A stretch of DNA of 64,000 nucleotides from an uncultured Chitinophagaceae bacterium (GCA_964600785.1 CAZRKH010000091.1:9037-73036), one strand, 5' to 3'; shown: positions 11,201-43,194, counted from the stretch's first letter. Numbers and translations are program-made. Notes: a model not told the origin generated them from the letters alone.

Positions 11201-11312
11201 CGCTGAGGACGGCGGGAATTCGCCGCGGTACGATTGGCGGCGGCGGTAATCCGATCCTAGCCGACCGTGGACAAAGTGACCCGCCGAACATCTCCCCGCA
11301 GGAACCGGCCCC

Positions 11313-11855: not shown

Positions 11856-11893
11856 CGGCGGCGGGCCTGCGCGTGCTGCGGAGATGACAAGAC

Positions 11894-26165: not shown

Positions 26166-27260
26166 TCAGCAGATCCGCGGCAGCTGCTCCCCGACCGGTA
26201 GCGGCACGACCCGGCTGCCCCCGATCGGCGTGCGTGCGGTGACCTTGCCGGCGGGCCGACGGGTGACCCGCCCGATGACCGCGGCGTTGCGACCCTCGGG
26301 CCGGGACCGCATCGCCTCGAGCAGCCTGCCTGCCTCGTCGCCGGCCACGATCGCCAGCAGTTTGCCCTCGTTGGCCACCAGCAGCGGGTCGAGCCCGAGC
26401 AGCTCGCAGGCCGAGGCCACTGCCGGGGCGACCGGCACCGCCGCATCGTCGATTTCGATGCCGACCGGCTCCCGGCCCGCGGCCCGCCTGGCGGCCGAGG
26501 CGAGGCTCGCGATTTCGTTGAGGCTCGTGGCCACACCGCCACGGGTGGGATCCCGCAGCAGCCGGATCCCGTCCGCCGCGGCGAGCATCTCCGCCACCAG
26601 ACCATGCAAGGCTGCGGTGTCGCTGGCGATCTCCGCCTCGAAGCCGAGGCCCTCCCGCAGGCTCATCACTGCCATCCCATGATCGGCGAGTGTCCCGCTG
26701 AGCACGACCGCATCGCCCGGCTCGATGCGGCCGGCGTCGAGATCGACCCCCTCGGGCACGACGCCAATCCCGGTGGTGTTGATGTAGACCCCGTCGCCGT
26801 GGCCCCGCTCGACGACCTTCGTGTCGCCCGCCACGATCCGCACGCCCGCCGCCGCCGCCGCCGCCGCCATGGCCGCGGTGATCCGCTCGAGATCCACGAT
26901 CGGCAGGCCTTCCTCGAGGATGAAGCCAACGGTCAGAAACCTCGGCACCGCGCCGCTCATCGCCAGGTCGTTGACGGTGCCGTTGACCGCCAGCTCGCCG
27001 ATCGAGCCGCCGGGAAAGAAGAGCGGCCGCACCACGAAGGAATCGGTCGAGCAGGCCAGGCGGCCGGGCAGCTCTCCGAGCACCGCCGAATCGCCGAGCC
27101 GCTCGAGCACGGGGTTGCCGAAGGCCGGCAGGAAGATTCGCTCGATCAGTTCCCCGGAGAGCAGCCCGCCCCCTCCGTGGCCGAGCACGATTCGCCCGGC
27201 AGAGCCGTCGGAGGTCGGGCAGGAGAACCCACTGAAGTCGATGGAAGCCCGCTCGCTCAT
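26166..27260 (-). CDS. hypE: hydrogenase maturation protein HypE
   Basis: ..RIVLGHGGGGLLSGELIE.., an AIR-synthase-like fold and the invariant C-terminal ..PRIC. Confidence 0.95.
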   Translation of the reverse strand: MSERASIDFSGFSCPTSDGSAGRIVLGHGGGGLLSGELIERIFLPAFGNPVLERLGDSAVLGELPGRLACSTDSFVVRPLFFPGGSIGELAVNGTVNDLAMSGAVPRFLTVGFILEEGLPIVDLERITAAMAAAAAAAGVRIVAGDTKVVERGHGDGVYINTTGIGVVPEGVDLDAGRIEPGDAVVLSGTLADHGMAVMSLREGLGFEAEIASDTAALHGLVAEMLAAADGIRLLRDPTRGGVATSLNEIASLASAARRAAGREPVGIEIDDAAVPVAPAVASACELLGLDPLLVANEGKLLAIVAGDEAGRLLEAMRSRPEGRNAAVIGRVTRRPAGKVTARTPIGGSRVVPLPVGEQLPRIC

Positions 27261-28343
27261 TTACCGGCCCGCGTGAAAGTAGGCGGCGCAGGCCCCTTCG
27301 CTGGAGACCATCGTCGCCCCCAGGGGCGTCCGCGGCGTGCACTCCCGGCCAAAGGCGGGGCACTCGTTGGGCTTGAGCGTGCCCTGGAGCACTTCCCCGC
27401 TGTGGCACAGCGGCGACTCCTCGGCCGGCTGGCCGGCCGCGGGAAACCGCCGCTGGGCATCAAAGCCGGCATAGGCCTCTGCCAGCTGCCAGCCGCTGGC
27501 GGGAATCGTGCCGATCCCCCGCCAGGCCCGGTCGACCGGTTCGAAGACCTCCGCGAGCACCGCCTGGGCCTCGCGGTTGCCCTCATCGGTGACTGCGCGG
27601 GCATAGGCATTCTCGACCTCGTGGCGACCCGCCTCGAGCTGGGCGATGGCGCGGCGGATCCCCTCGAGCAGGTCGAGCGGCTCGAAGCCGGTGATCACGA
27701 TTGGCACCCGGTGCGTCCGGCAGAGATCCGGATACTGCCAGATACCCATCACGCTGCAGACATGACCGGCCGCGAGGAAGGCATCGACCCGGCAGCCGGG
27801 AGAACGCATGATCGCGTCGATCGCCGGCGGCACGAGCACGTGCGAGACGATCGCCGAGAAGTTGGCAAGATCCCGGCTCGCGGCGAGCTTGATCGCCATC
27901 GCGTTGGCCGGGGCGGTGGTCTCGAAGCCGATCGCCAGAAAGACCACCTCGCGATCGGGATTCTCCGCAGCCAGCCGCACCGCATCGAGCGGCGAGTAGA
28001 CCACGCGGACATCCCCGCCGCGTCCCTTGACGTCGAACAGGTTTTCCCGGCTGCCCGGCACGCGGAGCATGTCGCCGAAGGAGCAGAAGATCACTTCCGG
28101 CCGGGCCGCGATCTCGATCGCCCGGTCGATCACCGACAGCGGGGTCACGCAGACCGGACAGCCGGGGCCGTGGATCATCTCCACGTTCTCGCCGAGCAGT
28201 TGATCGATACCGTTGCGGATGATCGAGTGGGTCTGGCCGCCGCAGACCTCCATGATCGCCCAGGGCCGGGTCGCACTGCGGCGGATCTCCGCCGCCAGCC
28301 TGCGGGCAGTGTCGGCATCGCGGTATTCGGTGAGGTACTTCAT
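27261..28343 (-). CDS. hypD: hydrogenase maturation protein HypD
   Basis: MKYLTEYRD...[21 protein letters not shown]...FETTAP....[10 protein letters not shown] are conserved HypD motifs. ATG at 28343 overlaps the hypC stop. Confidence 0.95.
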
Positions 28344-28612
28344 GGAGGGGTCTCGTCGGTGGCCCGCAGTTCCTCGAGTTCCTCCTCGAGGAGGCCGAGT
28401 TCTGCGAAGGTGGCAAGCGTCTGCCGGGCCGACTCCTCGTCGATGCGGCTGATCGCGAAGCCGACATGCACGATCGTGTAGTCGCCGACCTCGATCTCCG
28501 GCAGGTAGGCGAGGCAGACCTCCTTCACGACGCCGCCGAAGTCGACCTTCCCCATGCGGGTGCCGCGGTCCTCGTAGATCTCCCCGATGCGTCCGGGAAT
28601 CGCCAGGCACAT
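28340..28612 (-). CDS. hypC: hydrogenase maturation chaperone HypC/HupF family
   Basis: The N-terminus MCLAIPGRI (essential Cys2) and a 90-aa OB-fold size. Confidence 0.9.
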
Positions 28613-28615
28613 GCC

Positions 28616-29785
28616 TCACCTCCAGATCATCACGCGGTTGTTGCCGGAGTCGGCGATGGCGAGCGTGTCACCATGCTGGTGCAGCCCGTAGGGCCAGCAG
28701 AGCGAGTCGCTCGTCACCGCCTTCCAGTGATTTTCCCCTGCGGCGTCGAAATCTGGCTGGCCGAACACCGCGCGAGCCTCGCTGCCGGCGGTGACATTTG
28801 GCGGCAGCGGCCACTCGAGCACGCGGTTGTTGGCGGTGTCGGCCACCACAAGGAATCGTCCGTTGGCATTCTCGCCCCGGGAAAGCCCGTAGGGAAATCG
28901 CAGCCTCGCCGGTCCCTGCGGCCGGTAGGGAAACTCCCCGTTGGAGTCGAAGTCGGCCTGACCGAGGACGATCGTTGCCGGCATGTCGGCGGTCGGCTGC
29001 CCGGGAAACCCGAGGACCCGGTGGTTGCCCGCGTCGGCCACAAACAGCCAGGAGCGGTCACCGGCGATTCCATGGGGCCAGCGGAACGACGAGGCCGAAG
29101 GTGGTCCGCCGCGGTTCTCCTCGTGGGCTGAAAAGTCATCCTGGCCGAGCACGACATCCGCGGGACGGTCGTCCTCGGGCAGCCCGTTCCAGATCAGCAC
29201 CCGACGGTTGCCGGTGTCGGCCACGTGCAGCCGGCCGGCGATGAAGGCCAGACCGTAAGGCCAGCGGAGGCTGTCGGCGGCTGCTTCACCGCCGCGGTTG
29301 GGCTCGACCGCTTCAAGGTTCGGCTGGCCGAGGCAGCAGTCCGGCGGGGTGTCGCTTCGGGTGGGCAGTTCGTGCCACACCAGCACTCGGTGATGCCAGG
29401 CGTCGGCCACCAGCAGCCGTCCCTCGGCCACGATTGCCGCGGTGGGCAGATGCAGTCCGCCGGCCGGCCCGCGACCGGAAGCCGCCGGCCCCTCGGCCTC
29501 GAAGCCCGCCTGGCCGAGCACGATCGACGCGGCGGCGTGGTCCTCGGCGGGCAGGCCCTCCCAGATGAGCAGGCGGTGGTTGCCGGTGTCGCAAACGATC
29601 AGCCGCTGGTCGTCGAGCCACACGCCGCGGGGCGCGTAGAGCTGCGAAGCGGTCGGCATCGCCGCGGGCAGGGCCAGCCCGCCGGGAGCCGCCGCACCGA
29701 TCCAGCGGACCGGCCGCCGGCCCCCGGCATCCTCGCCGGCCGCCGTGGCGGACGGCGGTTCGACCGATGGCCCCTGTCTGCTCAT
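28616..29785 (-). CDS. six-bladed NHL-repeat beta-propeller protein (hydrogenase-locus accessory)
   Basis: Six repeats of the type ..L.VADTGNHRVLIW.. ([66 protein letters not shown]). ATG at 29785 overlaps the upstream stop (ATGA). Its stop lies 3 nt from the hypC start. Confidence 0.8.
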
Positions 29786-30681
29786 GACGGCCGCACCCAG
29801 ATCAGGCCCTCGCTGACCCGCAGCGGAAATGCTTCGAGCTGGCACTGCGGAGCGGTGAAGCATTCGCCGGAATCACTGTCGAAGCGGAAGCCGTGCCAGG
29901 GGCAGGTGATCGTGCCGCCCTCGTCGTCGCAGATACCACGCTCCAGCGGCATCCCGGCATGCGGGCAGGCATTCCGGAAGGCCCGCAGTCCGGCCCGGCT
30001 GGCGATCACAAGCACACTCGTCTCTCCCGCCTCGAAGGCCAGCAGCTCACCGGGCACGACCGCCTCGGCCGGCGGGCCGGCCATCCAGCCGGCCGCCTCG
30101 AGGCTCGCCTGATCGCCGGCGGGTGCCGGGGCGATCTGGAAGACCGCCGGCTCGGCGGCCAGCGGCTCGGCGGGCACCACCTCCACCCCCTCGATTTCCG
30201 GCACATGCTCTTTGAGTGATTCCTCCACGGTTGTGCGGAGCGTGACCGACGACATCGAGCATCCGTTGCAGCTGCCGGAGAGCTGCACGAAGGCTCGACC
30301 CTCGCGGACGTCGACCAAGGCCACGTCGCCACCGTGCGACTGGAGGTAGGGCCGTACCATTTCAATCACGCGTGCTACGCGGGTCTCGAGGTCGGCCCGC
30401 ACCAGGCCGTGCATCGCGAAGAGCGCATAGACCTCCGGCTCGGCGGCGAGTTCCAAGAGCAGCTCCTTGCCGCGAGGGTCGGCCTTGAGCAGCCGCACGA
30501 TCCTCGTCAGGCCCACCTTGTGAAACTCCTCGATCGCCGCCCGCAACGCGGTTGCCTTGCCGCGGTGCTCCGGCTCGAGGGCCGCCACCTCCGCCGCTGC
30601 CGCATCGACTGTCGCGGCGAGCCGCTCGAGATCGGCGGAGTGATCGGTCTGGTCGGGCTCGGCCTGATGATCGGTGGACAT
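29782..30681 (-). CDS. NifU(C-terminal Nfu)-Rieske [2Fe-2S] fusion protein (HucE/HhyE-like candidate)
   Basis: The central Nfu domain is ..IEMVRPYLQSHGGDVALVDV..AFVQLSGSCNGCSMSSVTLRTTVEESLKE... The C-terminal Rieske motifs are CPHAG...CPWHGFRFD. ATG at 30681. Confidence 0.8.
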   Translation of the reverse strand: MSTDHQAEPDQTDHSADLERLAATVDAAAAEVAALEPEHRGKATALRAAIEEFHKVGLTRIVRLLKADPRGKELLLELAAEPEVYALFAMHGLVRADLETRVARVIEMVRPYLQSHGGDVALVDVREGRAFVQLSGSCNGCSMSSVTLRTTVEESLKEHVPEIEGVEVVPAEPLAAEPAVFQIAPAPAGDQASLEAAGWMAGPPAEAVVPGELLAFEAGETSVLVIASRAGLRAFRNACPHAGMPLERGICDDEGGTITCPWHGFRFDSDSGECFTAPQCQLEAFPLRVSEGLIWVRPS

Positions 30682-30741
30682 GTGGGGGGATCGTTTGGGG
30701 TGTGCGGGTCCGAAGATTCTGTTGGCAGAGATCGGCAACGC

Positions 30742-31131
30742 TCAGACCGGCTGGTAGCCGGCCCGTTTGTCGAGGGTTTCGAGGGTCCTGGGGAGCAGCA
30801 CCGCGGCGAACACCGCCCGGGCGAGCAGGCCTGCCGCATCGCCGAGGGTTGCCGTGTCGGTCAGACCGTCAAACAGGTCGCGGTGCGGGAACACCGGCCG
30901 TCGGGCCAGCGCTGCGAGTACGAAGCAGGCCCCGTCAGGGTTGTCGAGCAGAAAATCGGCGAAGAAGGCGTCGGTGAATCCGCTCAGCCAGGTGCCTTCC
31001 CCCTCGGGGTCGTCCCGCAGCTTTTCCGCCGCGGCTTGCGGCCCGCGATGCCGCTCCTCGAGCCGGGCGGCATACCGCTCAGCGGCGGTCTCGAGGAGCA
31101 CGTCAAACTGTTGTCGCTGGTGGAGGTCCAT
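30742..31131 (-). CDS. hypothetical protein (129 aa) within hydrogenase operon
   Basis: ATG at 31131. Same strand and close spacing to its neighbours (41 and 60 nt gaps). I recognise no motif in it. Confidence 0.5.
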   Translation of the reverse strand: MDLHQRQQFDVLLETAAERYAARLEERHRGPQAAAEKLRDDPEGEGTWLSGFTDAFFADFLLDNPDGACFVLAALARRPVFPHRDLFDGLTDTATLGDAAGLLARAVFAAVLLPRTLETLDKRAGYQPV

Positions 31132-31172
31132 GGGGCATGTGGCTCCGCCGGGGCTGAGAGATCGTGGTGGAA

Positions 31173-32744
31173 TCAGAATAGTTCGTCGGCCCGCCCGCCC
31201 TCTCGGATCGCGTCGAGCTGCTGTTGGATCTGGTCGAGCAGTTGGCCGGTGGCCTGCGACTCCTCGCTGCATTCATAGGCACCGAACAGCCGGCGGGCTT
31301 CGGCGAGCTTCTCGATCGCCGGCTTGAAGATTCCCAGGTGGGCCAGGGCATTGGCCTGGTTGAAGAGCACCCTGGAATGGGCCACCGGGTCGCGGGCCCG
31401 AGACCTCACCTCCAGCACCTGCTCGTAGGCCTCGACGGCGTTGGCCAGGTTCTCTCTGGGGTGCGACGAGGGCAGGTATTGCAGGGCATTGGCCAGATTC
31501 ATCATCACGCTCGCCCAGCTGTCGGGATCCCGCTGGCGGTCACAGACTTCCAGAGCCCGGCGAAACGACTGCACGGCGATGCCCGTCCTCAGCTGATCGC
31601 TCGACTCGCCGCGGGGCATCGCCAGATAGGCCAGTCCGAGGCCGTTTTGGATCTGCCCGAACCATCCCGGACGGTTCTCGCGGTCGATGCCCGCCGCAAG
31701 GGCCCGCTGGTAGGCCTTGATCGCCTCGAGCAGCCCGCCCCGGCTGCCGGCGGCCGCGTGCTGGCGGGCCACGGCGAGCTTCATCCAGGCCTCCGCCTCG
31801 AGCAGCCCTCCCGCGGCGGCAGCGGCCAGTTCGGCGGCCTCGGCATACAACTCGCACAGTTCGCTCGGGGCTGTTTGCAGCGTGCCGGCCAGGTCAGCCC
31901 ACTGGATCAGCAGCGTCGCGGCAAACACCGGCGAGGGCTCGCGGGCCACCCTCAAGGCCCGTTCGAGCAGCTCGCAGGCCGCGGGCACGTTATCCCGCTC
32001 AATCGCGGCCGCCGCGGCGGTGAGGCCGGCAAGGGCCGCCAGTTCTCCATCGAGTGTGCCCACGGGCGGTGGCTCACCGCTGAGGCCGTGCGCAAAAGCG
32101 GCGATCTGGCCGAGTTCCTCAAGCCACGCATCGCCGGCTCGTGCGAGGTCTGCGAGGCTCTCGGGTGTGCCGCTGATCACGAAGCGGTTGTAGGCGTCCA
32201 GCGGTGTGTTGCCGTGAATCGCCGCAGCCGCCGCGGGCAGGTCACCCTCTGCGGCAAGCCTGAAGAACCGCCAGGCCCGCGGAACGGGCGTGTTCGCCTC
32301 GCCCCGCAGCAGGCCCGCGAGCGGCTCGCTCGCTTCGCCACTCTCCAGCGGCGGCAGCAGCAGATGCGAGGCTGGAAAGGGAAAGATGCCCACTGGCTGC
32401 GGCCGTGGCAGCCCGGCCGCGGCCAGGCCGACCCGCAGCCCGCCGGCCGACTCGTCCCAGACCGCGGTGTGGCAGCCGGTGGGCAGCTGGAAACCGAAGA
32501 CCTCCGCCACCAGCACGCTGCGGTCGCCGGCGGCGTTGCGTTGCTTGAGGATCAGGCCCCCGGCGGCATTGCCCCGGGTGGGCAAAAGCAGGAGTGTGTG
32601 CCGCTTGACGAGGGCCACCAGGGCGTCGTCGGGAAAGAACCGCTCCGCGTCGGCCCGCCGCAGGCGGAGGTAGCCGTCGGCGGCAATTTCGAGGCTGCAC
32701 TCCGCCGGCGGGGCGGGCGGGCTTGTTGTCTGGCTGCTCATCAC
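31173..32744 (-). CDS. TPR-like helical-repeat protein with distinct N-terminal domain (hydrogenase-locus accessory)
   Basis: The C-terminal about 250 aa shows TPR-like A/L/Y periodicity (..EAIKAYQRALAAGID.., ..AVQSFRRALEVCD.., ..AVEAYEQVLEV.., ..AIEKLAEARRLF..). The start (GTG 32744 or ATG 32741) overlaps the endopeptidase stop (GTGATGA). Confidence 0.65.
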   Translation of the reverse strand: MMSSQTTSPPAPPAECSLEIAADGYLRLRRADAERFFPDDALVALVKRHTLLLLPTRGNAAGGLILKQRNAAGDRSVLVAEVFGFQLPTGCHTAVWDESAGGLRVGLAAAGLPRPQPVGIFPFPASHLLLPPLESGEASEPLAGLLRGEANTPVPRAWRFFRLAAEGDLPAAAAAIHGNTPLDAYNRFVISGTPESLADLARAGDAWLEELGQIAAFAHGLSGEPPPVGTLDGELAALAGLTAAAAAIERDNVPAACELLERALRVAREPSPVFAATLLIQWADLAGTLQTAPSELCELYAEAAELAAAAAGGLLEAEAWMKLAVARQHAAAGSRGGLLEAIKAYQRALAAGIDRENRPGWFGQIQNGLGLAYLAMPRGESSDQLRTGIAVQSFRRALEVCDRQRDPDSWASVMMNLANALQYLPSSHPRENLANAVEAYEQVLEVRSRARDPVAHSRVLFNQANALAHLGIFKPAIEKLAEARRLFGAYECSEESQATGQLLDQIQQQLDAIREGGRADELF

Positions 32745-33223
32745 CCGACCTCCGCGGTGAGCCGGGCGAGCAGTCGCTCGGCGAGCCGATCGACCGCCGC
32801 ATCGACCGCGGGGGAGAGCCCTTCGCCCACCTCGTAGTTGACGCCTTCGATGAGGTAGGCGGTCACGCTCGCGGGGTAGTCGTCCTTGAGCAGCCAGCGG
32901 GCAAAGGCGATCGCATGGTCCCAGCGGAAGGCATGGAGGTTGATGCTGCCCAGGGGGGGCAGATTCTCAACCTCGTGGCCGGGCAGTTCGAAGGTCGCAC
33001 CGGGGTCGCTGCCGGAGGAGCAGGCATCGACCAGGATCACCTCCGGCACGCCTCGCATCTGGAAGGCGACGTCCATCCCGCCGGTGCCGCCGTCGGCACA
33101 CCGCACACCCACAGGCAGCCCCCGCTCCCAGAGCCGCCGGACCAGCACCGGCCCAGCCGCGTCGTCGCCCCGCAGCAGGTTGCCGCAGCCGATGACGAGC
33201 GTGCGGATCGGCCCGGAGTCCAT
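32741..33223 (-). CDS. [NiFe]-hydrogenase maturation endopeptidase (HyaD/HybD/HupD family)
   Basis: ..TLVIGCGNLLRGDDAAGPVL.....EVILVDA.....H.. are the family metal-ligand motifs (GDD, D, H). 160 aa. It starts 3 nt after the large-subunit stop. Confidence 0.9.
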   Translation of the reverse strand: MDSGPIRTLVIGCGNLLRGDDAAGPVLVRRLWERGLPVGVRCADGGTGGMDVAFQMRGVPEVILVDACSSGSDPGATFELPGHEVENLPPLGSINLHAFRWDHAIAFARWLLKDDYPASVTAYLIEGVNYEVGEGLSPAVDAAVDRLAERLLARLTAEVG

Positions 33224-33226
33224 CGC

Positions 33227-34852
33227 TCACCCCATCTCGCCGATCCGGAACTTCGCCAGTTCGCGGCCGGTCTTGCCGTCGAAGGTGTGCACCGTGCAGA
33301 CCAGGCAGGAGTCGTAGGAGCGGGCCACGTGGCCCATCTCCACCGGGTCGGTCGGGTCGGTGATCGGCGAGCCGATGAACGACTGCTCCATCGGCCCGTG
33401 CACGTCCTTGCCGTCCTGCGGGCCGATGTTCCAGGCTGTCGGTGTGACCACCTGGTAGTTCTCGATCTTGCCGTTCTCGATCACGATCCAGTCGGCGAGC
33501 GAGCCGCGGGCCGCCTCGGTGGCCCCAAAGCCCTTGCCGGAGGCGTGTTCCACCGGCTTGGTGTAGAAGTTTTCGTGGAGGTCAATTTCCGAGAGCCACT
33601 GCTGGGCGAGCTTGTAATACTTGCAGGCCTCGTGCATCCGGGCCATCACCCGCACCAGCACGCTCGGGCCGGCCTTGGTCACCGCATCGAGAAAGAGCGG
33701 GTCGAAATCCTGATGGGCCGCCGCTGCGGGCCTGCCCGCGATCACCTGCCGGGCCAGCGGCCCCGCCTCCAGTGGCATCGGCCCCTTGCCAGGCACCTCA
33801 TAGCGAGGGCTCTTGGCCCAGGAATACTTGCCCTCTTTGTGACCCTCGGCCGGATCGATCGGGTCGGTGACACCCTCCCAGGGATGCAGGTAGGTGTCAC
33901 CCCGGAAGAACGAATGGGCGGTACTCTCGCGGACATGCAGGTGGTCGAAGTCGTGAAACTCATCGCCATCGTAGACCCCGGCCCGGTTGATGAGGGCGGC
34001 ATTGCGGCCTTCGATCGTGGGTCGTTCGTAGAGTTCCGGCTGGAAGTAGGTGCCGGTGGCGAGAAATTTCCCGCAGCCGCCGCCGAAGCGATCGAGCCCG
34101 ATCGCCCTGGCGAAGTGCAGGAACATTCCGCAGTCGCTCCTCCGCTGGCTCTCGTTCTCTTCCGACCAGGCCCAGACATCGTCCCAGGTCTTGTTCTCCA
34201 TCCACCGCTCGATCGGGCAGCCGAGCCAGACCTTCTCCAGCCACTCCCGCTTCCAGTAGTCGAGAATTGCCGTGGCCCGGGTCACGTCGGAGAGGGTGGG
34301 GCCGCACATCACTCCGCCGGGGATCATGAAGCTCGAATGTGGCCACTGGCCACCGAAGATCGCGTAGACCTCCACCGGCTTGCCCGAGAGGGTCACTCCT
34401 GTCTCGTAGGAGGTACCCGTGAAGGGGGCGAACCGCCGCACGATCTCGTCGTATTCGGGCGCCGAGGCGTAGTTCTTGTTGGTCAGGTCGACGGCGAAGA
34501 GGGCATAGAACCACCGCGGGATCGACTGCAGGGTCTCGCAGCACTGACCGATGTTGCGAACCAGCGTCGCATTGCGGGGGACATGGGTCCGCCAGGCGGT
34601 GTCGAGGGCATAGGCGGCCTTGTAAAGATGGCTGCCCCCGCAGATGCCGCAGATGCGGGGCGTGACGATCAGGCCGGCCTGCGGATCCTTTCCCTTGAGG
34701 ATGATCTCGAAGCCGCGGAACATGCTCGCCTCGGTCCAGGCATCGGTGACGACACCGTCGGTGACCTCGATCCTGAGGTCGAGGTCACCCTCGACGCGGC
34801 CCAGCGGGCTGATCCGCATCGGAGTGGTGGTCGATTCGGTGGCGGTGGCCAT
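33227..34852 (-). CDS. [NiFe]-hydrogenase large subunit
   Basis: N-terminal RVEGDL, L1 motif TPRICGICGGSH and L2 motif RSYDSCLVCTVH, followed by a 19-aa C-terminal extension (TFDGKTGRELAKFRIGEMG) of the type removed by the endopeptidase. 541 aa. Confidence 0.95.
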   Translation of the reverse strand: MATATESTTTPMRISPLGRVEGDLDLRIEVTDGVVTDAWTEASMFRGFEIILKGKDPQAGLIVTPRICGICGGSHLYKAAYALDTAWRTHVPRNATLVRNIGQCCETLQSIPRWFYALFAVDLTNKNYASAPEYDEIVRRFAPFTGTSYETGVTLSGKPVEVYAIFGGQWPHSSFMIPGGVMCGPTLSDVTRATAILDYWKREWLEKVWLGCPIERWMENKTWDDVWAWSEENESQRRSDCGMFLHFARAIGLDRFGGGCGKFLATGTYFQPELYERPTIEGRNAALINRAGVYDGDEFHDFDHLHVRESTAHSFFRGDTYLHPWEGVTDPIDPAEGHKEGKYSWAKSPRYEVPGKGPMPLEAGPLARQVIAGRPAAAAHQDFDPLFLDAVTKAGPSVLVRVMARMHEACKYYKLAQQWLSEIDLHENFYTKPVEHASGKGFGATEAARGSLADWIVIENGKIENYQVVTPTAWNIGPQDGKDVHGPMEQSFIGSPITDPTDPVEMGHVARSYDSCLVCTVHTFDGKTGRELAKFRIGEMG

Positions 34853-34865
34853 GGGGTTCTCCTGT

Positions 34866-35837
34866 TCAGACGACGAACATGTCTTCCTTGGTCCAGCGGG
34901 GGGCGGCGAGCTTGGCGGCAGCGGCGTGGGCGAGGTAGCTCAGTTTGCCGGTGCCGGTCTGGCCGTCCTGGGGGATCACGCCGGCGATCTTCTGGGTCTT
35001 GAAGACCGTGCCGGGCATCAGGTCGTAGAAGGGAAACTCCGGCTCGGTGCAGCCGGTGCAGGGCATCCCCGCCCGGGTCTTCGACGACTGCCTGTTCCAG
35101 AGGATCCGATTGCAGGGGGAGTGGGTCATCGGCCCGCGGCAGCCAAATTCGTAGAACAGACAGCCGGTTCGCGTGCCCTGGCCGAACTCCTGGGTGTGCT
35201 GTTTGTATTCGTAGAACTGCACGCGGGTACAGCCGGTCTGGGTGAAGGTCTTGAAGAAAGTCTGCGGCCGCTGCAGATCATCCAGGGCGATGTCACCGGC
35301 CCGTCCGCTGGCGATCGCCACGAGGATCTGCGTGACCCAATCGGGATGGGCGGGGCAGCCGGGAATGTTGATCACCGGCAGCCCCCACTTGCTCTTGAAG
35401 CCCGCCCCGAGATAGCCGCCGCGGTTCTTCTTGAGGTATTGCAGCCCGGTTGAATCGGAGGGGTTCGGCGCGGTCGCCGGGATGCCGCCCCAGCAGGCGC
35501 AGTCACCCAGGGCGACCACGGCATTGGCCACGCCGGAAAGTTCCGCCACCCACTCCTTCATCGGTCGGTCGGCAAACATGTTGAAGCGGCCGGTGCCGTG
35601 GGGCGCCTGGATGACGGTGCCCTCGAAAACGAAAATGTCGAGCTGTCGCCTGCCCGCGATGATGTCGCCGAGCATCGACTTGACATGGTCGCCCAACTCC
35701 AGGCCCAGCGAGGGATGCCAGAGCACGTCGATCCCGAAGTCGGTCACCAGGTCGCATGCGCTCGGCTCCTCGGCATTGAGAAACGACATCGTGTTGCCGC
35801 TGCAGGCGCCGCCCTGCAGCCAGAGAAGCGTGGCCAT
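34866..35837 (-). CDS. [NiFe]-hydrogenase small subunit, no Tat signal peptide
   Basis: The ATG at 35837 gives MATLLWLQGGACSGNTMS.. with no twin-arginine leader. FeS-ligand blocks are GDCACWGG, PGCPAHP and ..GCLFYEFGCRGPMTHSPC...MPCTGCTEP. 323 aa. The rest of the 822-aa track ORF is antisense to hypA/hypB. Confidence 0.9.
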   Translation of the reverse strand: MATLLWLQGGACSGNTMSFLNAEEPSACDLVTDFGIDVLWHPSLGLELGDHVKSMLGDIIAGRRQLDIFVFEGTVIQAPHGTGRFNMFADRPMKEWVAELSGVANAVVALGDCACWGGIPATAPNPSDSTGLQYLKKNRGGYLGAGFKSKWGLPVINIPGCPAHPDWVTQILVAIASGRAGDIALDDLQRPQTFFKTFTQTGCTRVQFYEYKQHTQEFGQGTRTGCLFYEFGCRGPMTHSPCNRILWNRQSSKTRAGMPCTGCTEPEFPFYDLMPGTVFKTQKIAGVIPQDGQTGTGKLSYLAHAAAAKLAAPRWTKEDMFVV

Positions 35838-35985
35838 GATTGTGCTCGCTATGCGGGTGAGGCGGGTGAGGCTCGGTGGTGCTGTGACGTCTCCGGAAGC
35901 CACACGAGGTCGCCTGGCGGCATCCGCCCTGAGCCCCGGCGGTGAATCGCACCCAATCCCTGACGCCGCTAGATTATAGGGGAGC

Positions 35986-36007
35986 GTGTTTCTCGATTGC
36001 AAAACAC
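35986..36007. promoter_or_regulatory. inverted repeat GTGTTT-N10-AAACAC in divergent hydrogenase/hypAB control region
   Basis: Perfect 6-bp arms at 35986-35991 and 36002-36007. It lies 29 nt upstream of the hypA ATG, in the 198-bp gap between divergent operons. Confidence 0.25.
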
Positions 36008-36035
36008 CCCGGCTCACGCCGCCTCGGAGGCCGCC

Positions 36036-36386
36036 ATGCACGAACTCTCGATCGCCACACGGCTGGTGGAAATGGTCGGCGAGCAGCTGGCTGCCAGCGG
36101 CGGGCGGGCCGGCAGGATCACCCTCCGGATCGGCCGGCTCTCCTGTGTCCACGAAGACTCGCTGCGGTTTTCCTTCGATCTGGTCCGCGAGGGGACCCCC
36201 GCGTCCGAGGCCACGCTCGAGATCGTGCAGCTTCCGGTGCGGGTCTATTGCCAGCGGTGCGATGACGAGTTTGAACTGCCGGGAATCCAGCGATTCATCT
36301 GCCCGTCCTGCGGCAGGCCCAGCGGCGACATCCGCCAGGGCCGGGAGCTCGACTTGGAGTCGATCGAAGTCCTCGAGACGACATGA
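36036..36386 (+). CDS. hypA: hydrogenase nickel-insertion protein HypA
   Basis: MHELSI (MHE nickel site) and a zinc ribbon CQRC...CPSCG. GGAGG lies 6 nt upstream of the ATG at 36036. Confidence 0.9.
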   Translation: MHELSIATRLVEMVGEQLAASGGRAGRITLRIGRLSCVHEDSLRFSFDLVREGTPASEATLEIVQLPVRVYCQRCDDEFELPGIQRFICPSCGRPSGDIRQGRELDLESIEVLETT

Positions 36387-36449
36387 CGGCATGACGACAT
36401 CAATCCGACACGAACCTGCAGAAACGCCACCAACCTGGAGAATTCCCGC

Positions 36450-37172
36450 ATGAGCCCCGCGTCTGACACCGCCTGTGGCCCCCGCATCCTCGAGGTGCGG
36501 ACGAAAATCCTCAAAAAGAACGACGAACTCGCCCGCGAGATGCGGCACCGCTTCGAGGCGGCCGGTGTGCTGGTGGTCAACATGGTCTCGAGCCCCGGCA
36601 CCGGCAAGACCTCGCTGCTCACCGAAACCCTGCGTCGGCTGCATGCGGCCGGTGAGCCGACCGCCGCGGTGGTGGGCGATCTCGAGACCGACAACGACGC
36701 CCGTCGGCTCGCCGAGAGCGGCGTGCCGGTGCGGCAGATCATGACCCACGGGCTGTGCCATCTGGAGGCGGACATGCTCCAGGCGGAGCTGGATGCCTGG
36801 CGGGCCGAGGGCCTCGGGGTCGAGAGCCTGCGGTATCTCTTCGTGGAGAACGTGGGCAATCTCGTCTGCCCGACGAGCTGGGATCTCGGAGAGTCGGTGC
36901 GTGCGGCGCTGCTCTCGGTGACCGAGGGGGAAGACAAGCCGCTGAAATACCCCGGCCTCTTCAACACCGCCGACGTCGCCGTGATCACCAAGGCCGATCT
37001 GGCCGATGCCTGCGAGTTTGACCGGGGCTTGGCAATGGCCAACATCGAGCGGGTCCGGCCCGGCATGCCGGTGATCGAGACGAGCATCAAGTCGGCCGCG
37101 GGGATCGACGAGTGGCTCGCGATCCTCGCTGAGCAGCGGGAGCGACTGGTTGAGGGCCGTGCGGGGGCCTGA
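36450..37172 (+). CDS. hypB: hydrogenase nickel-insertion GTPase HypB
   Basis: P-loop SSPGTGKTSLL, ..ENVGNLVCP.. and ..ITKADL.. (G-domain motifs of the HypB/UreG SIMIBI class). Confidence 0.9.
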   Translation: MSPASDTACGPRILEVRTKILKKNDELAREMRHRFEAAGVLVVNMVSSPGTGKTSLLTETLRRLHAAGEPTAAVVGDLETDNDARRLAESGVPVRQIMTHGLCHLEADMLQAELDAWRAEGLGVESLRYLFVENVGNLVCPTSWDLGESVRAALLSVTEGEDKPLKYPGLFNTADVAVITKADLADACEFDRGLAMANIERVRPGMPVIETSIKSAAGIDEWLAILAEQRERLVEGRAGA

Positions 37173-37182
37173 CTGCCGAACC

Positions 37183-38754
37183 TCAGGGCAACACCCGCTC
37201 GCCGACGGCGGTGTTGAGCTGGAACATCGAGCGGCGGTGTCGCACCAGGGCCTCGAGATACTGTCTCGAGATCTCGCCGTAGGCCCGCTGAGCCTCGATC
37301 TTCGAGATCGTGCCGGCCGCGCCCGGTTCGGCACCCCGCAGGGCGAGTTCCAGGTTTTCCCGGGCCGCCGGAAGGATCTCCTCCTCGATCCGCCCGAGCG
37401 TCGCGAGCGTCACGTCGTAGGCCGCCTCGGCCCGCTGCACCTCGAGCATCACCTGCCGTTCGAGATTGGCCAATTGGGACCTCGTCTGCAGCACGGTGTG
37501 TTCGGCCCGGGCGATGTTGCCCTGGTTGCGATTGAAGACCGGCAAGGGAAGCGTGCCCCCCATCGCCCAGGAGTAGGAGGCGCGGTCGCCGGGATCGAGG
37601 CCCTCCTGGGCGGTGAACGGCTGGTAGAGCAGGAAGGCATCGTCCATGCGATTGGCCCGGGCCAGCCGCACCTCCGAACGGGCCCGCTCGACGCCCAGGC
37701 GGAACGCCACCAGGTCGGGCCGGCAGGCCTGAGCGCGTGCCACGAGTTCGTTGACTGGGGGAATCTGCAGCCGCTGCGAGCGGAGCCGGCCGCGGATCGG
37801 GAATGTTTCCGCCTCTTCCGGCGGGATTGCAAGCAGCGCCGCGAGGGTTCGCATCGCGTCGTCGTAGGTCTCCCGGGTCTCGAGCAGCGTGAGGTCGGTG
37901 CTGTCGATCTGAATCTCGACATTGTTGACCTCGGTCTGGTTCAGTTCACCCCGCTGCACGCGGGCCTCGGTGGCCCGCTTCTGTATCTCCAGATTCTCCA
38001 TGCCCGCCTCGAGAAAACGGATCGAGGCTCGTGCCGCCAGCACGTCGGCCCAGGCCGTGTAGAGGTTGTCGATCTGGATCCGCACCGCATCCTGAAAGAG
38101 GGCCTCGGTGACCCGCTGGGCACGGGTTGCCACGTCGATCCGCCGCTGCCGCTTGTTGTTGATGTCGAGCGGCAGCGTGATGTTGGCGTCGTACTGCGTC
38201 GGCCCGCCACCGCTGCCGGCGAAATTGCCATACGGCACCATCGAGGCGTCGGTGTAGATCAGGGGATTGCCCCGCAGGCCGGCGGTCAGCAGGTCGGCCC
38301 TGGCTTTTGATATTTCCATTTCCTGGGCGCGGAGTTCGAGGTTCTGGCTCAAGAGCCGCTCGATCGCCTCGGCGATCGTCATCCCGTCGGCCGGCTCGGG
38401 AATGATCGCCTCGGGCTGCCCCAGCCGGCCGCCGAGGGGCAGCGGTTCGGCCTCCCCGGCCACCGGCGAGAATGATTCGATTCTGACCACCGGTTCGGGC
38501 TTGAAGGGCTCCGGCGGCTGGGTGATCCCCCGCGGAACGCGGGGATAGTTCGGGCCCGGTCCGACCGGAATCACCGCCTCGATCTGGCCGCCGCCGTCGA
38601 TGTCGACCGCCCCGCTGGCTCCCGGCGGTGGCGGCAGGGGAGAGGCGGACGGATCACCCGGATCGGCCCCGGCAGGCGACGACGCCAGGCAGACCAGCAG
38701 GCAGCCGCAGGCAACCCGGGCGGCCGAAAGCGGGCTCGTCTGCTGGCGGTTCAT
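37183..38754 (-). CDS. TolC-family outer-membrane efflux protein
   Basis: Signal plus Pro-rich linker, then the two OEP repeats (..TIAEAIERLLSQNLELRAQEMEISKARADLLTAG.. / ..LVARAQACRPDLVAFRLGVERARSEVRLA..). Confidence 0.8.
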   Translation of the reverse strand: MNRQQTSPLSAARVACGCLLVCLASSPAGADPGDPSASPLPPPPGASGAVDIDGGGQIEAVIPVGPGPNYPRVPRGITQPPEPFKPEPVVRIESFSPVAGEAEPLPLGGRLGQPEAIIPEPADGMTIAEAIERLLSQNLELRAQEMEISKARADLLTAGLRGNPLIYTDASMVPYGNFAGSGGGPTQYDANITLPLDINNKRQRRIDVATRAQRVTEALFQDAVRIQIDNLYTAWADVLAARASIRFLEAGMENLEIQKRATEARVQRGELNQTEVNNVEIQIDSTDLTLLETRETYDDAMRTLAALLAIPPEEAETFPIRGRLRSQRLQIPPVNELVARAQACRPDLVAFRLGVERARSEVRLARANRMDDAFLLYQPFTAQEGLDPGDRASYSWAMGGTLPLPVFNRNQGNIARAEHTVLQTRSQLANLERQVMLEVQRAEAAYDVTLATLGRIEEEILPAARENLELALRGAEPGAAGTISKIEAQRAYGEISRQYLEALVRHRRSMFQLNTAVGERVLP

Positions 38755-38884
38755 CGGTCGGTGTCCTGCGGCGAGGGCTGCGTGTGCGGACGATTCTCCT
38801 GGCGAATCGACCCTGCGGGTCGTATCGATGATATCGGTCGTGCCGGCCCGGGGCCTTGAAAGCGTTTCGGCTGCCGAGTCGAGC

Positions 38885-39640
38885 TCAGAAAGAGCCCAGA
38901 TTGAAGTTCACAAACGCCCCGAACGGCCCGACACCGATATTCATGCCCGAGGAACGCTGGGTGTCGGAGAACGGCGGCGAGCCATCGGCGTTGCCGCCGC
39001 GGTAGGGGGAGTAGGCCGCGGCGCGGCTACGGGAGGCGGCCGCGGCCGCGGAGGCGGCGGCTGTCTGCTGGCGGTTGGTGTCGGCCGCCTCGGCAAGGGC
39101 CTGCCGTCGCTCGTCGAAGGCCTGCTGACGCTGGCCGAGGGTGGCCCGCTTCCGGCCGATCCGGTCGATCTCCTGCTGCAGCTGGGCCGCCGACATCGAC
39201 GCGGCGTCGGGAAGCTGGCGGAGCTCCGTCGCCCGCTTGCGGTCGGACATCACCGAGAGATACTCCCCCAGCCAGGCCTTGGCGTCGCGGGCCTCGGGGG
39301 TTTCCAGGATCGCGAGCTTGGCGTCGAGGTCGTCGAGGAGATACTCGAGTTCCGCCGCAGTCATGGCCATCACCCGCTCGTTGAAGTCGGCCTTGATTCG
39401 GGCCACCTCCTGCGGCGTGTAGATCTGCTGGCTGTCGAGCCACTGGCCAAACTCGAAGATCGCCCGCTGCCAGCGATCGCCGTGCATGATCTCGGCCCGC
39501 CGGGCGAGGTCGTCATCGGCGGCGGCGGCCGGCTCGGCGGCGGCCGTGCTTCCGGCAAGCACGACGGAAAAAATCGTCGCGGCTGCGGCGATGGGGAGCC
39601 GGAAGCGGGACAATGCGCGGGTGAGGGCATGTCGGGTCAT
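38885..39640 (-). CDS. secreted coiled-coil protein, unknown function
   Basis: ATG at 39640 overlaps the upstream stop (ATGA). It has a signal peptide (..IAAAATIFSVVLAGSTAAA), a Q/R/E/A-rich helical middle and a Gly/aromatic C-terminus ..GMNIGVGPFGAFVNFNLGSF. Confidence 0.55.
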   Translation of the reverse strand: MTRHALTRALSRFRLPIAAAATIFSVVLAGSTAAAEPAAAADDDLARRAEIMHGDRWQRAIFEFGQWLDSQQIYTPQEVARIKADFNERVMAMTAAELEYLLDDLDAKLAILETPEARDAKAWLGEYLSVMSDRKRATELRQLPDAASMSAAQLQQEIDRIGRKRATLGQRQQAFDERRQALAEAADTNRQQTAAASAAAAASRSRAAAYSPYRGGNADGSPPFSDTQRSSGMNIGVGPFGAFVNFNLGSF

Positions 39641-40608
39641 CGTGATCCTTGCGGCGTGGGGGCATTGCCCGACTTGCGGAGCATGATCAGGTCGACCGGC
39701 GGGATGCGGTCGTCGCCGATGTCGGTCGGCAGCGACTGCCATCGGCAGCGGTTTGGGCCATCGGGGGTGTAGATGTTCAGCGAGGTGTGCTGTGTGCCGT
39801 CGGGATCGATGGTGCGGGCCTCGGCCACCCAGCTGCGGCCCTCGCGGTGCCATTCGGCCTCGCCGCGGGTGCCGTCGGAGCCGAACTTCCAGGAGTGGAT
39901 CGTTTTGCCGATCGGATCCCAGCCGATCCACTGCGTGACCCGCATCGGCGGAGCCTCGGCCGAGCGGGTGATCTTCATCACGCGAACCAGGTAGCTGCGG
40001 CTCTCGTTCCAGCGGGCGGCAACCTCGATCGCCGGGCCGGCTCCGTTCTCGGCCGAGTCGTCGCCGTCGGCGTCGTCGACCACCCGCCAGCTGCCGGTCA
40101 TCCAGTCGAGATCGGCCAGGGTCGCTCGGCCGTCTGCCGGTTCGACGGCAGCCTCCCGCACCGCGGCGAGTTTCCAGCGGCCTTCGTGGCGAACCCAGGT
40201 CGCCGCGAATCGTCCCCGCAGCGGCTCACCCTCGGGAGGCAGAATCTCCACGCTGCCGTCCTCGATGGCGGTGTCCGGCCCGAGAAAGCGGATCGACGTT
40301 TCGGTCATTCGGATGCGGGGCAGGGCGGCGGCACCGGCCGCTGCGGCCACCTCGCCGGCGGGAATCCGGTTGCCATCGGCATCGACGATGTCGCCCTCGG
40401 GCATCCACAGCGAGGCGAGGGTGCGGCCATCCCCCGCCTCAACCGCCTCGCGATAGGCCTTGGAGGCGGCATGAATCGCCGCGGTGTCATCGGCCACAGC
40501 GAGTTGACCAACGACTGACAGGCCGAGCAACACCAACACAGCCTGCGGCAACGCAGCCTGCGGCTTGCCACCCTCGGCCGAGGTTCTCCGCCTGCCTTTG
40601 AAATGCAT
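39637..40608 (-). CDS. secreted tandem NTF2-like (SnoaL/DUF4440-type) protein
   Basis: Signal peptide, then two repeats with a DUF4440-like pattern (..AIHAASKAYREAVEAGDGRTLASLWMPEGDIV... and ..DLDWMTGSWRVV..). Confidence 0.55.
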   Translation of the reverse strand: MHFKGRRRTSAEGGKPQAALPQAVLVLLGLSVVGQLAVADDTAAIHAASKAYREAVEAGDGRTLASLWMPEGDIVDADGNRIPAGEVAAAAGAAALPRIRMTETSIRFLGPDTAIEDGSVEILPPEGEPLRGRFAATWVRHEGRWKLAAVREAAVEPADGRATLADLDWMTGSWRVVDDADGDDSAENGAGPAIEVAARWNESRSYLVRVMKITRSAEAPPMRVTQWIGWDPIGKTIHSWKFGSDGTRGEAEWHREGRSWVAEARTIDPDGTQHTSLNIYTPDGPNRCRWQSLPTDIGDDRIPPVDLIMLRKSGNAPTPQGSR

Positions 40609-40758: not shown

Positions 40759-43194
40759 TCACCGTCGTGCCAGCACCGCTTGGCCCAGCGAGAGCCCGCC
40801 GTCGTTGGGGGGCACGCGGTGGTGGGTGAGCACCGCGAGGCCCGCCTGGTCGAGCCGGGCGATTGTCAGCTCCGTGAGCCGCGCATTTTGAAAGACGCCA
40901 CCCGTCAGGCCCACGGCTTCGGCGGCACAGCCCGCCGCGAGACGAACGGCCACCGCCGCGATTCCATCGGCCACCGCTTGATGGAAGGCCGCCGCAATGG
41001 CTTCCGGCGGCTCGCCGGCGGCCGCATCGCGGGTCATCGTGTCGATGAGTTGCTGCCAGCCGAGTGAGAACACCGCGTCAGAAGCCCCTGCGTGGGTGCC
41101 GGCTGGATGCGTGCTCGTGCTATTTTTGTCGGCTGCCTCGGGCAGGGAGAAGGCGTAGCGGAGCTTTCCGCTGCCGGCCGGATTCCCGCTTGCGGCCGCC
41201 TCCAGCCGCATCGCCGGCTCGGCTTCGTAGTGGGCATGGTGGCAGAGACCCGTGATCGAGGCGACCGCATCAAACAGGCGGCCCATGCTCGTCGTGGGCA
41301 GGCAGTTGAAGCCGCTGGCCAGCTGGCGGTGAACCACAGCCAGTTCCCGGGGGCCCGCGGGCGGCCCTCCCGGCCAGAGCCGGCACCTGTCGGCGGCGGG
41401 CATGATGCCAGCCGCGGACGCCACCGCCAGGGCGGTTCGCCAGGGATGGCGAATCGCTGCATCGCCCCCGGGCAGCGGAAAGGGAGCCAGGCGGGCCGCC
41501 AGCCGGGCCCGGCCCCGCTCGACCACGAAAAACTCACCGCCGGCGATCGTGCCGTCACGGGCATAGCCGGTGCCATCGAAGCAGGCCACCACCACGGCTC
41601 CGGCGGAGATGCCCAGGCCGTGTTCGGCCAGAAGCGAGGCCGCATGGGCCTCGTGGTGCTGCAGCTGCACCAGCGGAATCCCTCGGGCCGTGGCAAATTC
41701 GCGGGCCCAGCCAGTCGAGAGATAGCCGGGGTGCAGATCGGCGGCCACCCGCTCAGGAGCAATCCCGAAGAGCTTCATCAGATGCTCGGCGGCGCCGGAG
41801 AGCGCCTCGAGTGACTCCGGGCTGCCAAGGTCGCCGATATGCTGGCTGAGGATCGCCTCGCGGCCGCGTGCCAGGCAGAGCGTGGCCTTGAGTTCCCCGC
41901 CCACGGCGAGCACCGCCGGGCCGTCATCGGCGAGCCGGATCGGCAGCGGGGCGAAGCCGCGGCTGCGGCGGACCGGCACCGCCGTTCCCGCCACGCACCG
42001 CACCACCGAGTCGTCGCAGGCGACGTGGATCGGCCGGTCATGCAGCAGGAAGGCGTCGGCCAGTCCGGCCAGGCGTGTCACGGCCTCTCGATTCTCGCGG
42101 GCGATCGGCTCCTCCGAAAGGTTGCCTGAGGTCATCACCAGCGGTGGCAGGCCCTCACAGAGCATCGCGTGCAGCGGTGTGTAGGGGAGCATCACGCCGA
42201 GAAAGCCGTTGCCCGCGGCGGCCAGTTCGGCCACGACGAGCCCTTCGCCGTGCGGCCTCCCTTCGCCGTGCGGCACCCCTTCGCCGTGCGGCATTTTGAG
42301 CAGCACGATTGCTTTGGCCGGATCGGTCAGCAGACGGGCCTCTTGCTCGCTGATCGCGGCCAGCCTGCGGGCCGTCGCCAGGGAGTCTGCCATCACCGCC
42401 AGCGGCTTGCTGCCGCGGCCCTTGCGGGCCCGCAGCCGGGCGACCGCCTGCGGGTTGGTCGCGTCGCAGGCGAGATGAAAGCCGCCGAGACCCTTGATCG
42501 CCAGAATCCCGCCGGCCAGCAGCCGCGAGCGGGCGTCGGCAATCGCCGTCTCGCCGAGGCGGCCGGCGGCGGGCCGTTCGATGGTCAGGCCTCCGGCCTC
42601 GTCAGCCGCGGCCAGCCAGACCACCGGCCCGCAGTCCGGGCAGGCAATCGGCTGGGCGTGGAAGCGGCGGTCGGCGGGGTCGGTGTATTCGCTACGGCAG
42701 GCCTCGCACATCGCAAAGCGGTCCATCGTGGTCCGCGGACGGTCATAGGGCAGGGCGGTGATGATCGTGTAGCGGGGGCCGCAGTCGGTGCAGTTGGTGA
42801 ACGGGTAACGGTGGCGGCGGGCGGTGGCATCGGCGACCTCGGCGGCACAGGCGGGGCAGGTGGCGATGTCGGGTGGCAGCGTGGCATGCCCCTCGGCGAT
42901 CGGGTCACCGTGGCGGCCGCTTGCCAGGATCGCAAAGCCCTCCTCGACGCCCAGCGGAGAAAGCGGCTGTTGGTGCATCGCCTCGATCACCGCCAAAGGC
43001 GGCCGCTCGCGGCCGATCGCCGCGCTGAATTCCGCAATGCTCTGCGGCTCCCCCTCGACCTCGATCGTCACGCCATCGGCATCGTTCTCCACCCAGCCAG
43101 ACAGGCCGTGACGACGGGCCAGCCGCCAGATGAAGGGACGAAAGCCGACCCCCTGCACGATGCCGGTGATGCGGAGCCTGCGGCGTGCGGTCAT
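40759..43194 (-). CDS. hypF: carbamoyltransferase HypF
   Basis: Acylphosphatase domain (..GIVQGVGFRPFIWRLA..), two CxxC-x18-CxxC zinc fingers (CPAC..C.DCGPRY / CEAC..CPDCGP), a YrdC-like domain and a Kae1-like domain. 811 aa. Confidence 0.95.
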   Translation of the reverse strand: MTARRRLRITGIVQGVGFRPFIWRLARRHGLSGWVENDADGVTIEVEGEPQSIAEFSAAIGRERPPLAVIEAMHQQPLSPLGVEEGFAILASGRHGDPIAEGHATLPPDIATCPACAAEVADATARRHRYPFTNCTDCGPRYTIITALPYDRPRTTMDRFAMCEACRSEYTDPADRRFHAQPIACPDCGPVVWLAAADEAGGLTIERPAAGRLGETAIADARSRLLAGGILAIKGLGGFHLACDATNPQAVARLRARKGRGSKPLAVMADSLATARRLAAISEQEARLLTDPAKAIVLLKMPHGEGVPHGEGRPHGEGLVVAELAAAGNGFLGVMLPYTPLHAMLCEGLPPLVMTSGNLSEEPIARENREAVTRLAGLADAFLLHDRPIHVACDDSVVRCVAGTAVPVRRSRGFAPLPIRLADDGPAVLAVGGELKATLCLARGREAILSQHIGDLGSPESLEALSGAAEHLMKLFGIAPERVAADLHPGYLSTGWAREFATARGIPLVQLQHHEAHAASLLAEHGLGISAGAVVVACFDGTGYARDGTIAGGEFFVVERGRARLAARLAPFPLPGGDAAIRHPWRTALAVASAAGIMPAADRCRLWPGGPPAGPRELAVVHRQLASGFNCLPTTSMGRLFDAVASITGLCHHAHYEAEPAMRLEAAASGNPAGSGKLRYAFSLPEAADKNSTSTHPAGTHAGASDAVFSLGWQQLIDTMTRDAAAGEPPEAIAAAFHQAVADGIAAVAVRLAAGCAAEAVGLTGGVFQNARLTELTIARLDQAGLAVLTHHRVPPNDGGLSLGQAVLARR

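Follow-up and report, generated by a model that had tools for sequence, protein, structure and literature searches.

How does a soluble hydrogenase reach the quinone pool when the scaffold that connects it to the membrane is missing? This question is raised by a locus at positions 26166-37172 of a 64,000-nt stretch of DNA (CAZRKH010000091.1:9037-73036; here, the window) from a planctomycete metagenome-assembled genome (MAG). The locus encodes a close relative of Huc, the group 2a [NiFe]-hydrogenase of Mycobacterium smegmatis, with its accessory and maturation proteins. Huc is the structural model for bacterial life on atmospheric hydrogen, and its HucM stalk has been presented as the quinone route of this soluble enzyme. 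In M. smegmatis, the gene for HucM immediately precedes hucS, and the protein forms a tetrameric stalk that scaffolds an 833-kDa oligomer (a Huc octamer) and carries menaquinone over a distance of 94 Å from the membrane; deletion of hucM leaves the enzyme active and abolishes the oligomer (PMC10017518). We consider it likely that the window encodes a Huc-type (group 2a), O2-insensitive uptake [NiFe]-hydrogenase with a full maturation set, that HucM has been lost, and that free HucS2L2 units reach quinone by another way.

Assignment of the hydrogenase to group 2a

Comparison with Protein Data Bank (PDB) sequences matched the large subunit (HucL) to M. smegmatis Huc with an E value of 5.8e-262 and the small subunit (HucS) with an E value of 1e-174, both end-to-end and at about 75% identity (7UTD/7UUR/7UUS). 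The next best PDB matches were group 1 enzymes, at 1e-66 for the large subunit and 6e-30 for the small subunit. The group 1h enzyme 5AA5 scored 6.6e-34 and 1.7e-27, respectively, and group 3 enzymes scored 1e-17 to 1e-20. This gap in scores between Huc and the 1h and group 3 enzymes argues that, as judged by sequence comparison, the hydrogenase is Huc/2a and not 1h, 2b, or group 3. An earlier reading of the window, made from the sequence alone (the sequence-only reading), had proposed a Huc/2a- or 1h-like uptake enzyme; the first of these assignments holds and the second does not. The group 1h (Hhy) hydrogenase of Cupriavidus necator (5AA5) is also a cytosolic, O2-insensitive uptake enzyme that lacks a twin-arginine (Tat) signal and has NHL- and iron-sulfur-type accessory genes, but its subunits are only distantly similar to those of the window enzyme. 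A 1h enzyme would be closest to Hhy/HofKG-type subunits, and 5AA5 falls far below Huc.

The 541-aa HucL contains the L1 (RICGICGGSH) and L2 (DSCLVCTVH) motifs and a 19-residue tail after His522 that is predicted to be removed by a protease, all as originally described. Both motifs are identical in M. smegmatis HucL, so the Ser in L2, which had been taken as a departure from the canonical motif, belongs to the normal Huc motif. Sensory group 2b/2c enzymes have neither a C-terminal extension nor an endopeptidase; here, the 19-residue tail is accompanied by a HycI-family protease gene directly downstream of hucL, in agreement with the earlier argument against group 2b. HucL His172 aligns with His166 of M. 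smegmatis HucL. Similarly, every Cys of HucS, as well as Asn15 in the motif ACSGN, matches M. smegmatis HucS, in which all three clusters are [3Fe-4S] (PMC10017518), and we infer that the window HucS likewise carries three [3Fe-4S] clusters. The menaquinone-contacting residues Lys212, Tyr229, and Tyr301 of HucS are conserved.

HucS starts with MATLLW, and in the alignment the first residue of the deposited M. smegmatis HucS chain falls on its residue 2; all 80 of the HucS relatives compared align from residue 1. The sole alternative in-frame upstream start, a GTG in the 198-bp spacer ahead of hucS, would add 22 residues, and no twin arginine is found among them. The small subunit is thus leaderless, as previously proposed, with the same start as M. 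smegmatis HucS. Neither a Tat leader nor clustering with sensory or bidirectional enzymes, the two observations that the sequence-only reading would have counted against itself, was found.

The gene order hucS-hucL-protease-TPR-129aa-hucE-NHL-hypCDE is common to Huc loci of five phyla: Planctomycetota, Acidobacteriota, Gemmatimonadota, Chloroflexota, and Actinomycetota (including Mycolicibacterium). The sequence-only reading had proposed a synteny comparison with mycobacterial Huc; the protease, TPR, HucE, NHL, and hypCDE genes share their order, and the same accessory gene associations have been reported for group 2a (Islam et al. 2020, PMC7784904). In summary of the comparison with M. smegmatis Huc (Hyd1; Grinter et al. 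2023, PMC10017518), the two enzymes have in common their level of identity in both subunits, L1 and L2, the Cys/Asn pattern, the His166 equivalent, the three menaquinone-site residues, the lack of a Tat signal, and the protease-TPR-HucE-NHL-hypCDE order. The window differs in that hucM is absent from the genome, HucS is altered at positions 209, 214, 293, 297, and 306, hypA-hypB is divergent, and hypF is detached. It also has a 129-aa gene between the TPR gene and hucE that was undetected in mycobacterial loci and is perhaps divergent there. Although HucM is a defining part of the M. smegmatis holoenzyme, membership of group 2a is decided by HucL.

Absence of HucM from the genome and its clade

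We built a hidden Markov model (HMM) from the HucM of four actinobacterial loci and ran a broader second HMM unfiltered (hmmsearch --max). HucM homologues, which carry DUF1641, were identified by HMM in 54 related Huc loci, including seven planctomycete loci. A recent survey reported hydrogenase-linked DUF1641 genes only from Firmicutes and Actinobacteria; here, they are also found in loci of Planctomycetota, Acidobacteriota, Gemmatimonadota, Chloroflexota, and Rhodothermales. In the genome that contains the window, neither HMM gave a match to HucM, and Pfam DUF1641 gave no match above cut-off. Whole-genome profile searches likewise found no HucM in six relatives (L006-L009, L012, L027) or in G591, a genome of the same family. 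With the window genome (G000), these make up the eight genomes of a HucM-less clade (G000-G006 and G591), and positive controls of the profile search scored 1e-61 to 1e-83.

The site at which hucM would be expected is a contiguous spacer in the window. In sister planctomycete loci, hucM lies between hypA and hucS and heads a divergent hucM-hypA-hypB unit. The distance from hypA to hucS is only 198-218 bp in the window and in L009, and other HucM-less relatives have a gene for a His-rich membrane protein in this gap, on the hucS strand. The HucM-bearing planctomycete loci (L010 of Pirellulaceae, L017 of Pirellula sp., L013, L014, and L019) share with the window a phylum-level HucSL clade (83-87% HucS identity), the operon order, and the divergent hypA-hypB pair. 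They differ in having hucM at the head of the divergent unit, usually a nickel-transporter-like gene directly upstream of hucS, and a HucS that keeps F209, P293, and D297.

HucM absence extends beyond this clade. Genome-wide, neither a complete chromosome of an Acidobacteriaceae member nor a MAG of Chthoniobacterales encodes HucM, and a second HucM-less clade, independent of the planctomycete one, was found among Mycobacterium-like MAGs. In another genome (L015), HucM is encoded on a contig other than that of the Huc locus. Seven loci (L054, L056, L057, L058, L068, L077, and L080) form a long-branched Mycobacterium-like Huc clade without hucM; they have no hypAB upstream and no hypCDE downstream of the structural genes, and the whole genome of L077 is without HucM.

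HucS positions that change with HucM status

Among 40 HucM-linked sequences, 221 HucS positions are at least 90% conserved. Six of these (142, 209, 214, 293, 297, and 306) are changed in the planctomycete HucM-less clade, and the window HucS carries the signature Y209, H214, Q293, and G297. Menaquinone is bound between HucS 298-311 and HucM 63-78 (PMC13433803), and five of the six changed positions flank Lys212 or sit in or beside helix 298-311 (hypergeometric P = 1.8e-4, for an interface region defined after the positions had been seen). The independent Mycobacterium-like HucM-less clade also shows changes at positions 209, 293, and 297 (overlap P = 6e-4), as does the complete HucM-less Acidobacteriaceae chromosome, and Asp297 is also replaced in the HucM-less Chthoniobacterales MAG. 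Phe209, Pro293, and Asp297 are all retained in L015, whose HucM lies on another contig. In three further genomes (G591, G501, and G487), the HucS motif predicted HucM status correctly: FYEYKQ together with GTG at 295-297 accompanied the absence of HucM, and FFEYKQ together with GTDH at 295-298 its presence.

Several points weigh against a HucM-less enzyme with an altered interface. Besides the post hoc definition of the interface region, the three further genomes may coincide, as GTDB species representatives, with loci from which the signature was derived, and the check is perhaps not independent. The signature is not universal: P293 and D297 are both retained in G451, a more distant genome without HucM (73% identity). 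The planctomycete genomes without HucM are all MAGs, 92-97% complete, and a very divergent scaffold may escape the HucM profile. Indeed, HysM of archaea shares only 18% identity with HucM and yet has a similar fold (PMC11018855).

An alternative is that HucM or an equivalent stalk is present but was missed, being unassembled or too divergent, and that the enzyme is a standard stalked Huc oligomer. The window genome is 92% complete and in 143 contigs, the low identity of HysM shows how far such a fold can diverge, and G451 keeps P293 and D297 with no detectable HucM. We nevertheless regard a missed stalk as unlikely. HucM is absent from eight independent genomes of the clade in searches with strong controls, the ancestral hucM site in the window is a contiguous 198-bp spacer, and the complete Acidobacteriaceae chromosome also lacks HucM. 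Further, the HucS interface residues changed alongside the absence and are unchanged in L015, where HucM is elsewhere in the genome, and the surroundings of the HucM-less loci contain no other conserved gene. True absence of HucM therefore remains our preferred interpretation. We found no statement of a clade-wide HucM absence with HucS interface changes in the literature searched. The locus itself is an ordinary new member of a well-described family; what is new is that HucM is missing throughout a clade and that changes at the HucS interface recur.

Single loss and continued selection

In a tree of HucS and HucL that comprises Huc-type sequences only, the planctomycete enzymes form one group, which is split into HucM-bearing and HucM-less sister clades, the latter including the window. 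The placement of the planctomycete HucM-less enzymes in one clade implies that HucM was lost once, at the base of that clade. Within it, the ratio of nonsynonymous to synonymous substitution rates (dN/dS) of hucS is 0.05-0.14 at a dS of about 0.65. Given this low ratio, the HucM-less enzyme has been maintained since the loss, under strong purifying selection.

The alternative is that, after the loss of HucM, the hydrogenase no longer contributes to energy conservation and the locus survives as a decaying or silent remnant. Such a reading could draw on the patchy occurrence of Huc within the family, where a genome of the same genus has none, and on the nickel-transporter-like gene, which precedes hucS in most relatives and has moved to another contig here. 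It is very unlikely in view of the hucS dN/dS, the 13 genes that are all intact and tightly coupled, and the conservation of all catalytic and quinone-site residues.

Proposed route to the quinone pool

The maintained, HucM-less enzyme would lie on the cytoplasmic side of the membrane and oxidize H2, probably down to trace concentrations. The three putative [3Fe-4S] clusters would relay the electrons to menaquinone, from which they would enter aerobic respiration; a haem-copper oxidase (COX1) is encoded in the genome. Free HucS2L2 units may dock directly on the membrane or use an unrecognized partner to reach quinone. The simplest reading would be direct membrane docking via the surface that HucM would otherwise cover.

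A parallel is offered by NDH-2 of Bacillota, a quinone reductase family that occurs with or without the DUF1641 scaffold Ncp/YjlC (PMC13524794, PMC13433803). Some NDH-2 clades depend on the DUF1641 tube and others bind the membrane directly, and the enzyme surface differs between them. Unlike the case considered here, NDH-2 belongs to another enzyme family, and its scaffold was gained, whereas that of planctomycete Huc was lost.

Also to be set against the proposed route, the hucM deletion in M. smegmatis fits catalysis without HucM and is silent on respiratory coupling. The high H2 affinity and O2 insensitivity of the window enzyme are probable, being extrapolated from about 75% identity to one characterized enzyme. 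A broader proposal is that stalk-free function extends to the planctomycete clade and, independently, to the Mycobacterium-like clade and some Acidobacteriota and Verrucomicrobiota, that long-range delivery of quinone by HucM is dispensable for Huc, that HucS2L2 docks directly on the membrane via a remodeled surface, and that F209, P293, and D297 mark the HucM-docking patch. We see the chances of this proposal as about even. If it is true, stalked and unstalked Huc could be distinguished by sequence alone. A natural, long-maintained HucM-less Huc with recurrent changes at the docking surface would make the necessity of the stalk testable, and it provides candidate contact residues for mutagenesis.

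Gene content of the locus and candidate replacements for HucM

Open reading frame listing and Pfam scans found all 10 minus-strand genes and the divergent hypA-hypB pair intact, as first described (Table 1). Most adjacent minus-strand genes overlap by 4 nt or lie 0-13 nt apart, in keeping with the tight joins originally noted; the exception is the TPR and 129-aa genes, which are separated by 41 nt. The locus had been called complete, and the listed genes are indeed present, but hypF had been overlooked. This gene encodes a complete protein and lies 3.6 kb beyond the locus described earlier, so that the set hypABCDEF is complete within the window. In related planctomycete loci hypF adjoins hypB, and the three unrelated genes that keep the two apart in the window therefore look like an insertion. 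Across the 11.5-kb locus, only one sequence matches a sigma-70-like promoter (TTGCAA-18-TATAAT, 10/12); it lies about 135 nt upstream of hucS, inside the hucS-hypA control region.

Table 1. Features of the Huc locus and related features, with positions in the window unless another locus or contig is named
Feature	Position	Strand	Evidence
hucS, small subunit, 323 aa	34866-35837	-	E 1e-174 to 7UUR_D, full length, ~76% identity
hucL, large subunit, 541 aa	33227-34852	-	E 5.8e-262 to 7UUS_A, ~75% identity; Pfam NiFeSe_Hases
Hydrogenase maturation endopeptidase, 160 aa	32741-33223	-	Pfam HycI; TIGR00072 E 1.6e-35
TPR-like Huc accessory protein, 523 aa	31173-32744	-	weak TPR_12 match
129-aa conserved Huc-associated helical protein	30742-31131	-	homologues in other Huc loci
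hucE-like NifU-Rieske fusion	29782-30738	-	Pfam NifU 1.4e-24, Rieske 3.8e-16; alternative starts TTG 30738 or ATG 30681
NHL-repeat propeller protein, 389 aa	28616-29785	-	Pfam NHL 7e-19
hypC	28340-28612	-	Pfam HupF_HypC 1.9e-27
hypD	27261-28343	-	Pfam HypD 6.4e-148
hypE	26166-27260	-	Pfam AIRS, AIRS_C
Divergent control region hucS/hypA, 198 bp	35838-36035	.	intergenic
Sigma-70-like promoter match	35973-36002	-	
hypA	36036-36386	+	Pfam HypA 6.3e-30
hypB	36450-37172	+	Pfam cobW/HypB/UreG 1.4e-16
Three genes: TolC-like, coiled-coil, DUF4440/NTF2-like	37183-40608	-	
hypF, 811 aa, complete	40759-43194	-	acylphosphatase, two HypF zinc fingers, YrdC, Kae1-like domains
PSCyt1/PSCyt2/PSD1 planctomycete-type protein	60122-62494		domain match
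His-rich membrane protein, this genome	G000 C75:47505-48746	-	
His-rich membrane protein, other loci	L006 4154-5074; L007 1558-2451; L008 9011-9925; L010 8963-9865; others		

A TPR-like homologue occupies the same position in Huc loci of every phylum examined. The NifU-Rieske gene is placed as in mycobacterial Huc loci, and the position of the NHL gene is also conserved. NCBIfam has no specific names for the accessory proteins. The 129-aa protein has no Pfam, NCBIfam, or PDB sequence match. Its AlphaFold model is all-helical (pLDDT 93), and the best PDB fold match, at E 1.3, is not significant. The family occurs in about 40 Huc loci from most sampled phyla, with a mean column identity of 50% over 29 sequences and an invariant QQF near the N terminus. 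The possibility that this protein is an overlooked counterpart of HucM was tested and rejected, since most loci contain both genes.

In most planctomycete Huc loci, the gene immediately upstream of hucS encodes a His-rich membrane protein with multiple membrane passes, an HTLLGPDH motif, and a His-rich loop. It has only a weak DsbD_2 match and is probably a nickel/cobalt permease. Its gene precedes hucS in five HucM-less relatives, which made it a candidate membrane anchor in place of HucM. We rejected this idea because HucM-bearing planctomycete loci contain the gene too and because the window genome has it on a separate contig (C75). Among the genes flanking the locus in the window, none apart from hypF recurs in the HucM-less loci.

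Host and distribution

The window belongs to a planctomycete MAG of 2.8 Mb. Scanning one genome per species, we found relatives of the enzyme in more than 582 species, among them at least 13 species-level Planctomycetota MAGs. The nearest HucS relatives, at 83-94% identity, are from MAGs labeled Pirellulales, Planctomycetaceae, or Pirellulaceae; the next-nearest phyla are Acidobacteriota, Gemmatimonadota, Chloroflexota, and Actinomycetota, and HucSL is 75-83% identical across phyla. Huc is rare within Planctomycetota: at this level of similarity it was found in 1 of 400 evenly sampled other genomes of the phylum, no close copy was seen among the 400, and 4 of 200 sampled genomes of the order have one. 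The sequence-only reading held that this phylum is not classically tied to trace H2 oxidation. That view is overstated, as group 2a had already been catalogued there: a 2020 survey counted 13 phyla with such enzymes, Planctomycetota being represented by 1 genome (Islam et al. 2020, PMC7784904). The locus would extend likely trace-H2 oxidation, as a rare accessory trait, to small-genome planctomycetes.

Because HucSL is so similar across phyla, and because one close relative bears an implausible "Candidatus Kuenenia" label, the contig could in principle have been mis-binned and the hydrogenase could come from another phylum, such as Actinomycetota or Acidobacteriota. We find this the least probable of the alternatives, with hardly any weight. 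The same contig encodes a planctomycete-type PSCyt1/PSCyt2/PSD1 protein, GC content is even across the window (0.62-0.71), and the nearest HucS relatives all come from Pirellulales- or Planctomycetaceae-labeled MAGs of independent studies and fall in one clade. Of the flanking genes first cited as planctomycete-type, the PSCyt1/PSCyt2/PSD1 protein is well supported, whereas the BBP7 match is weak and below cut-off (E 5e-4). 

The label in question is that of L007 (CAZOMJ010000034.1), "uncultured Candidatus Kuenenia sp."; since the Huc locus of this record shares 91% identity with that of the window and lies inside the Pirellulales-labeled clade, the label is probably wrong. The window genome also encodes a second [NiFe]-hydrogenase, in a cluster of four genes on contig C137 (~10234-14700, minus strand). 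Besides an iron-sulfur and a FAD/NAD-type subunit, the cluster encodes a small subunit of 266 aa and a large subunit bearing the motifs RICGICPVAY and DPCISCATH. Its gene content resembles that of a group 3b NAD(P)-linked bidirectional enzyme.

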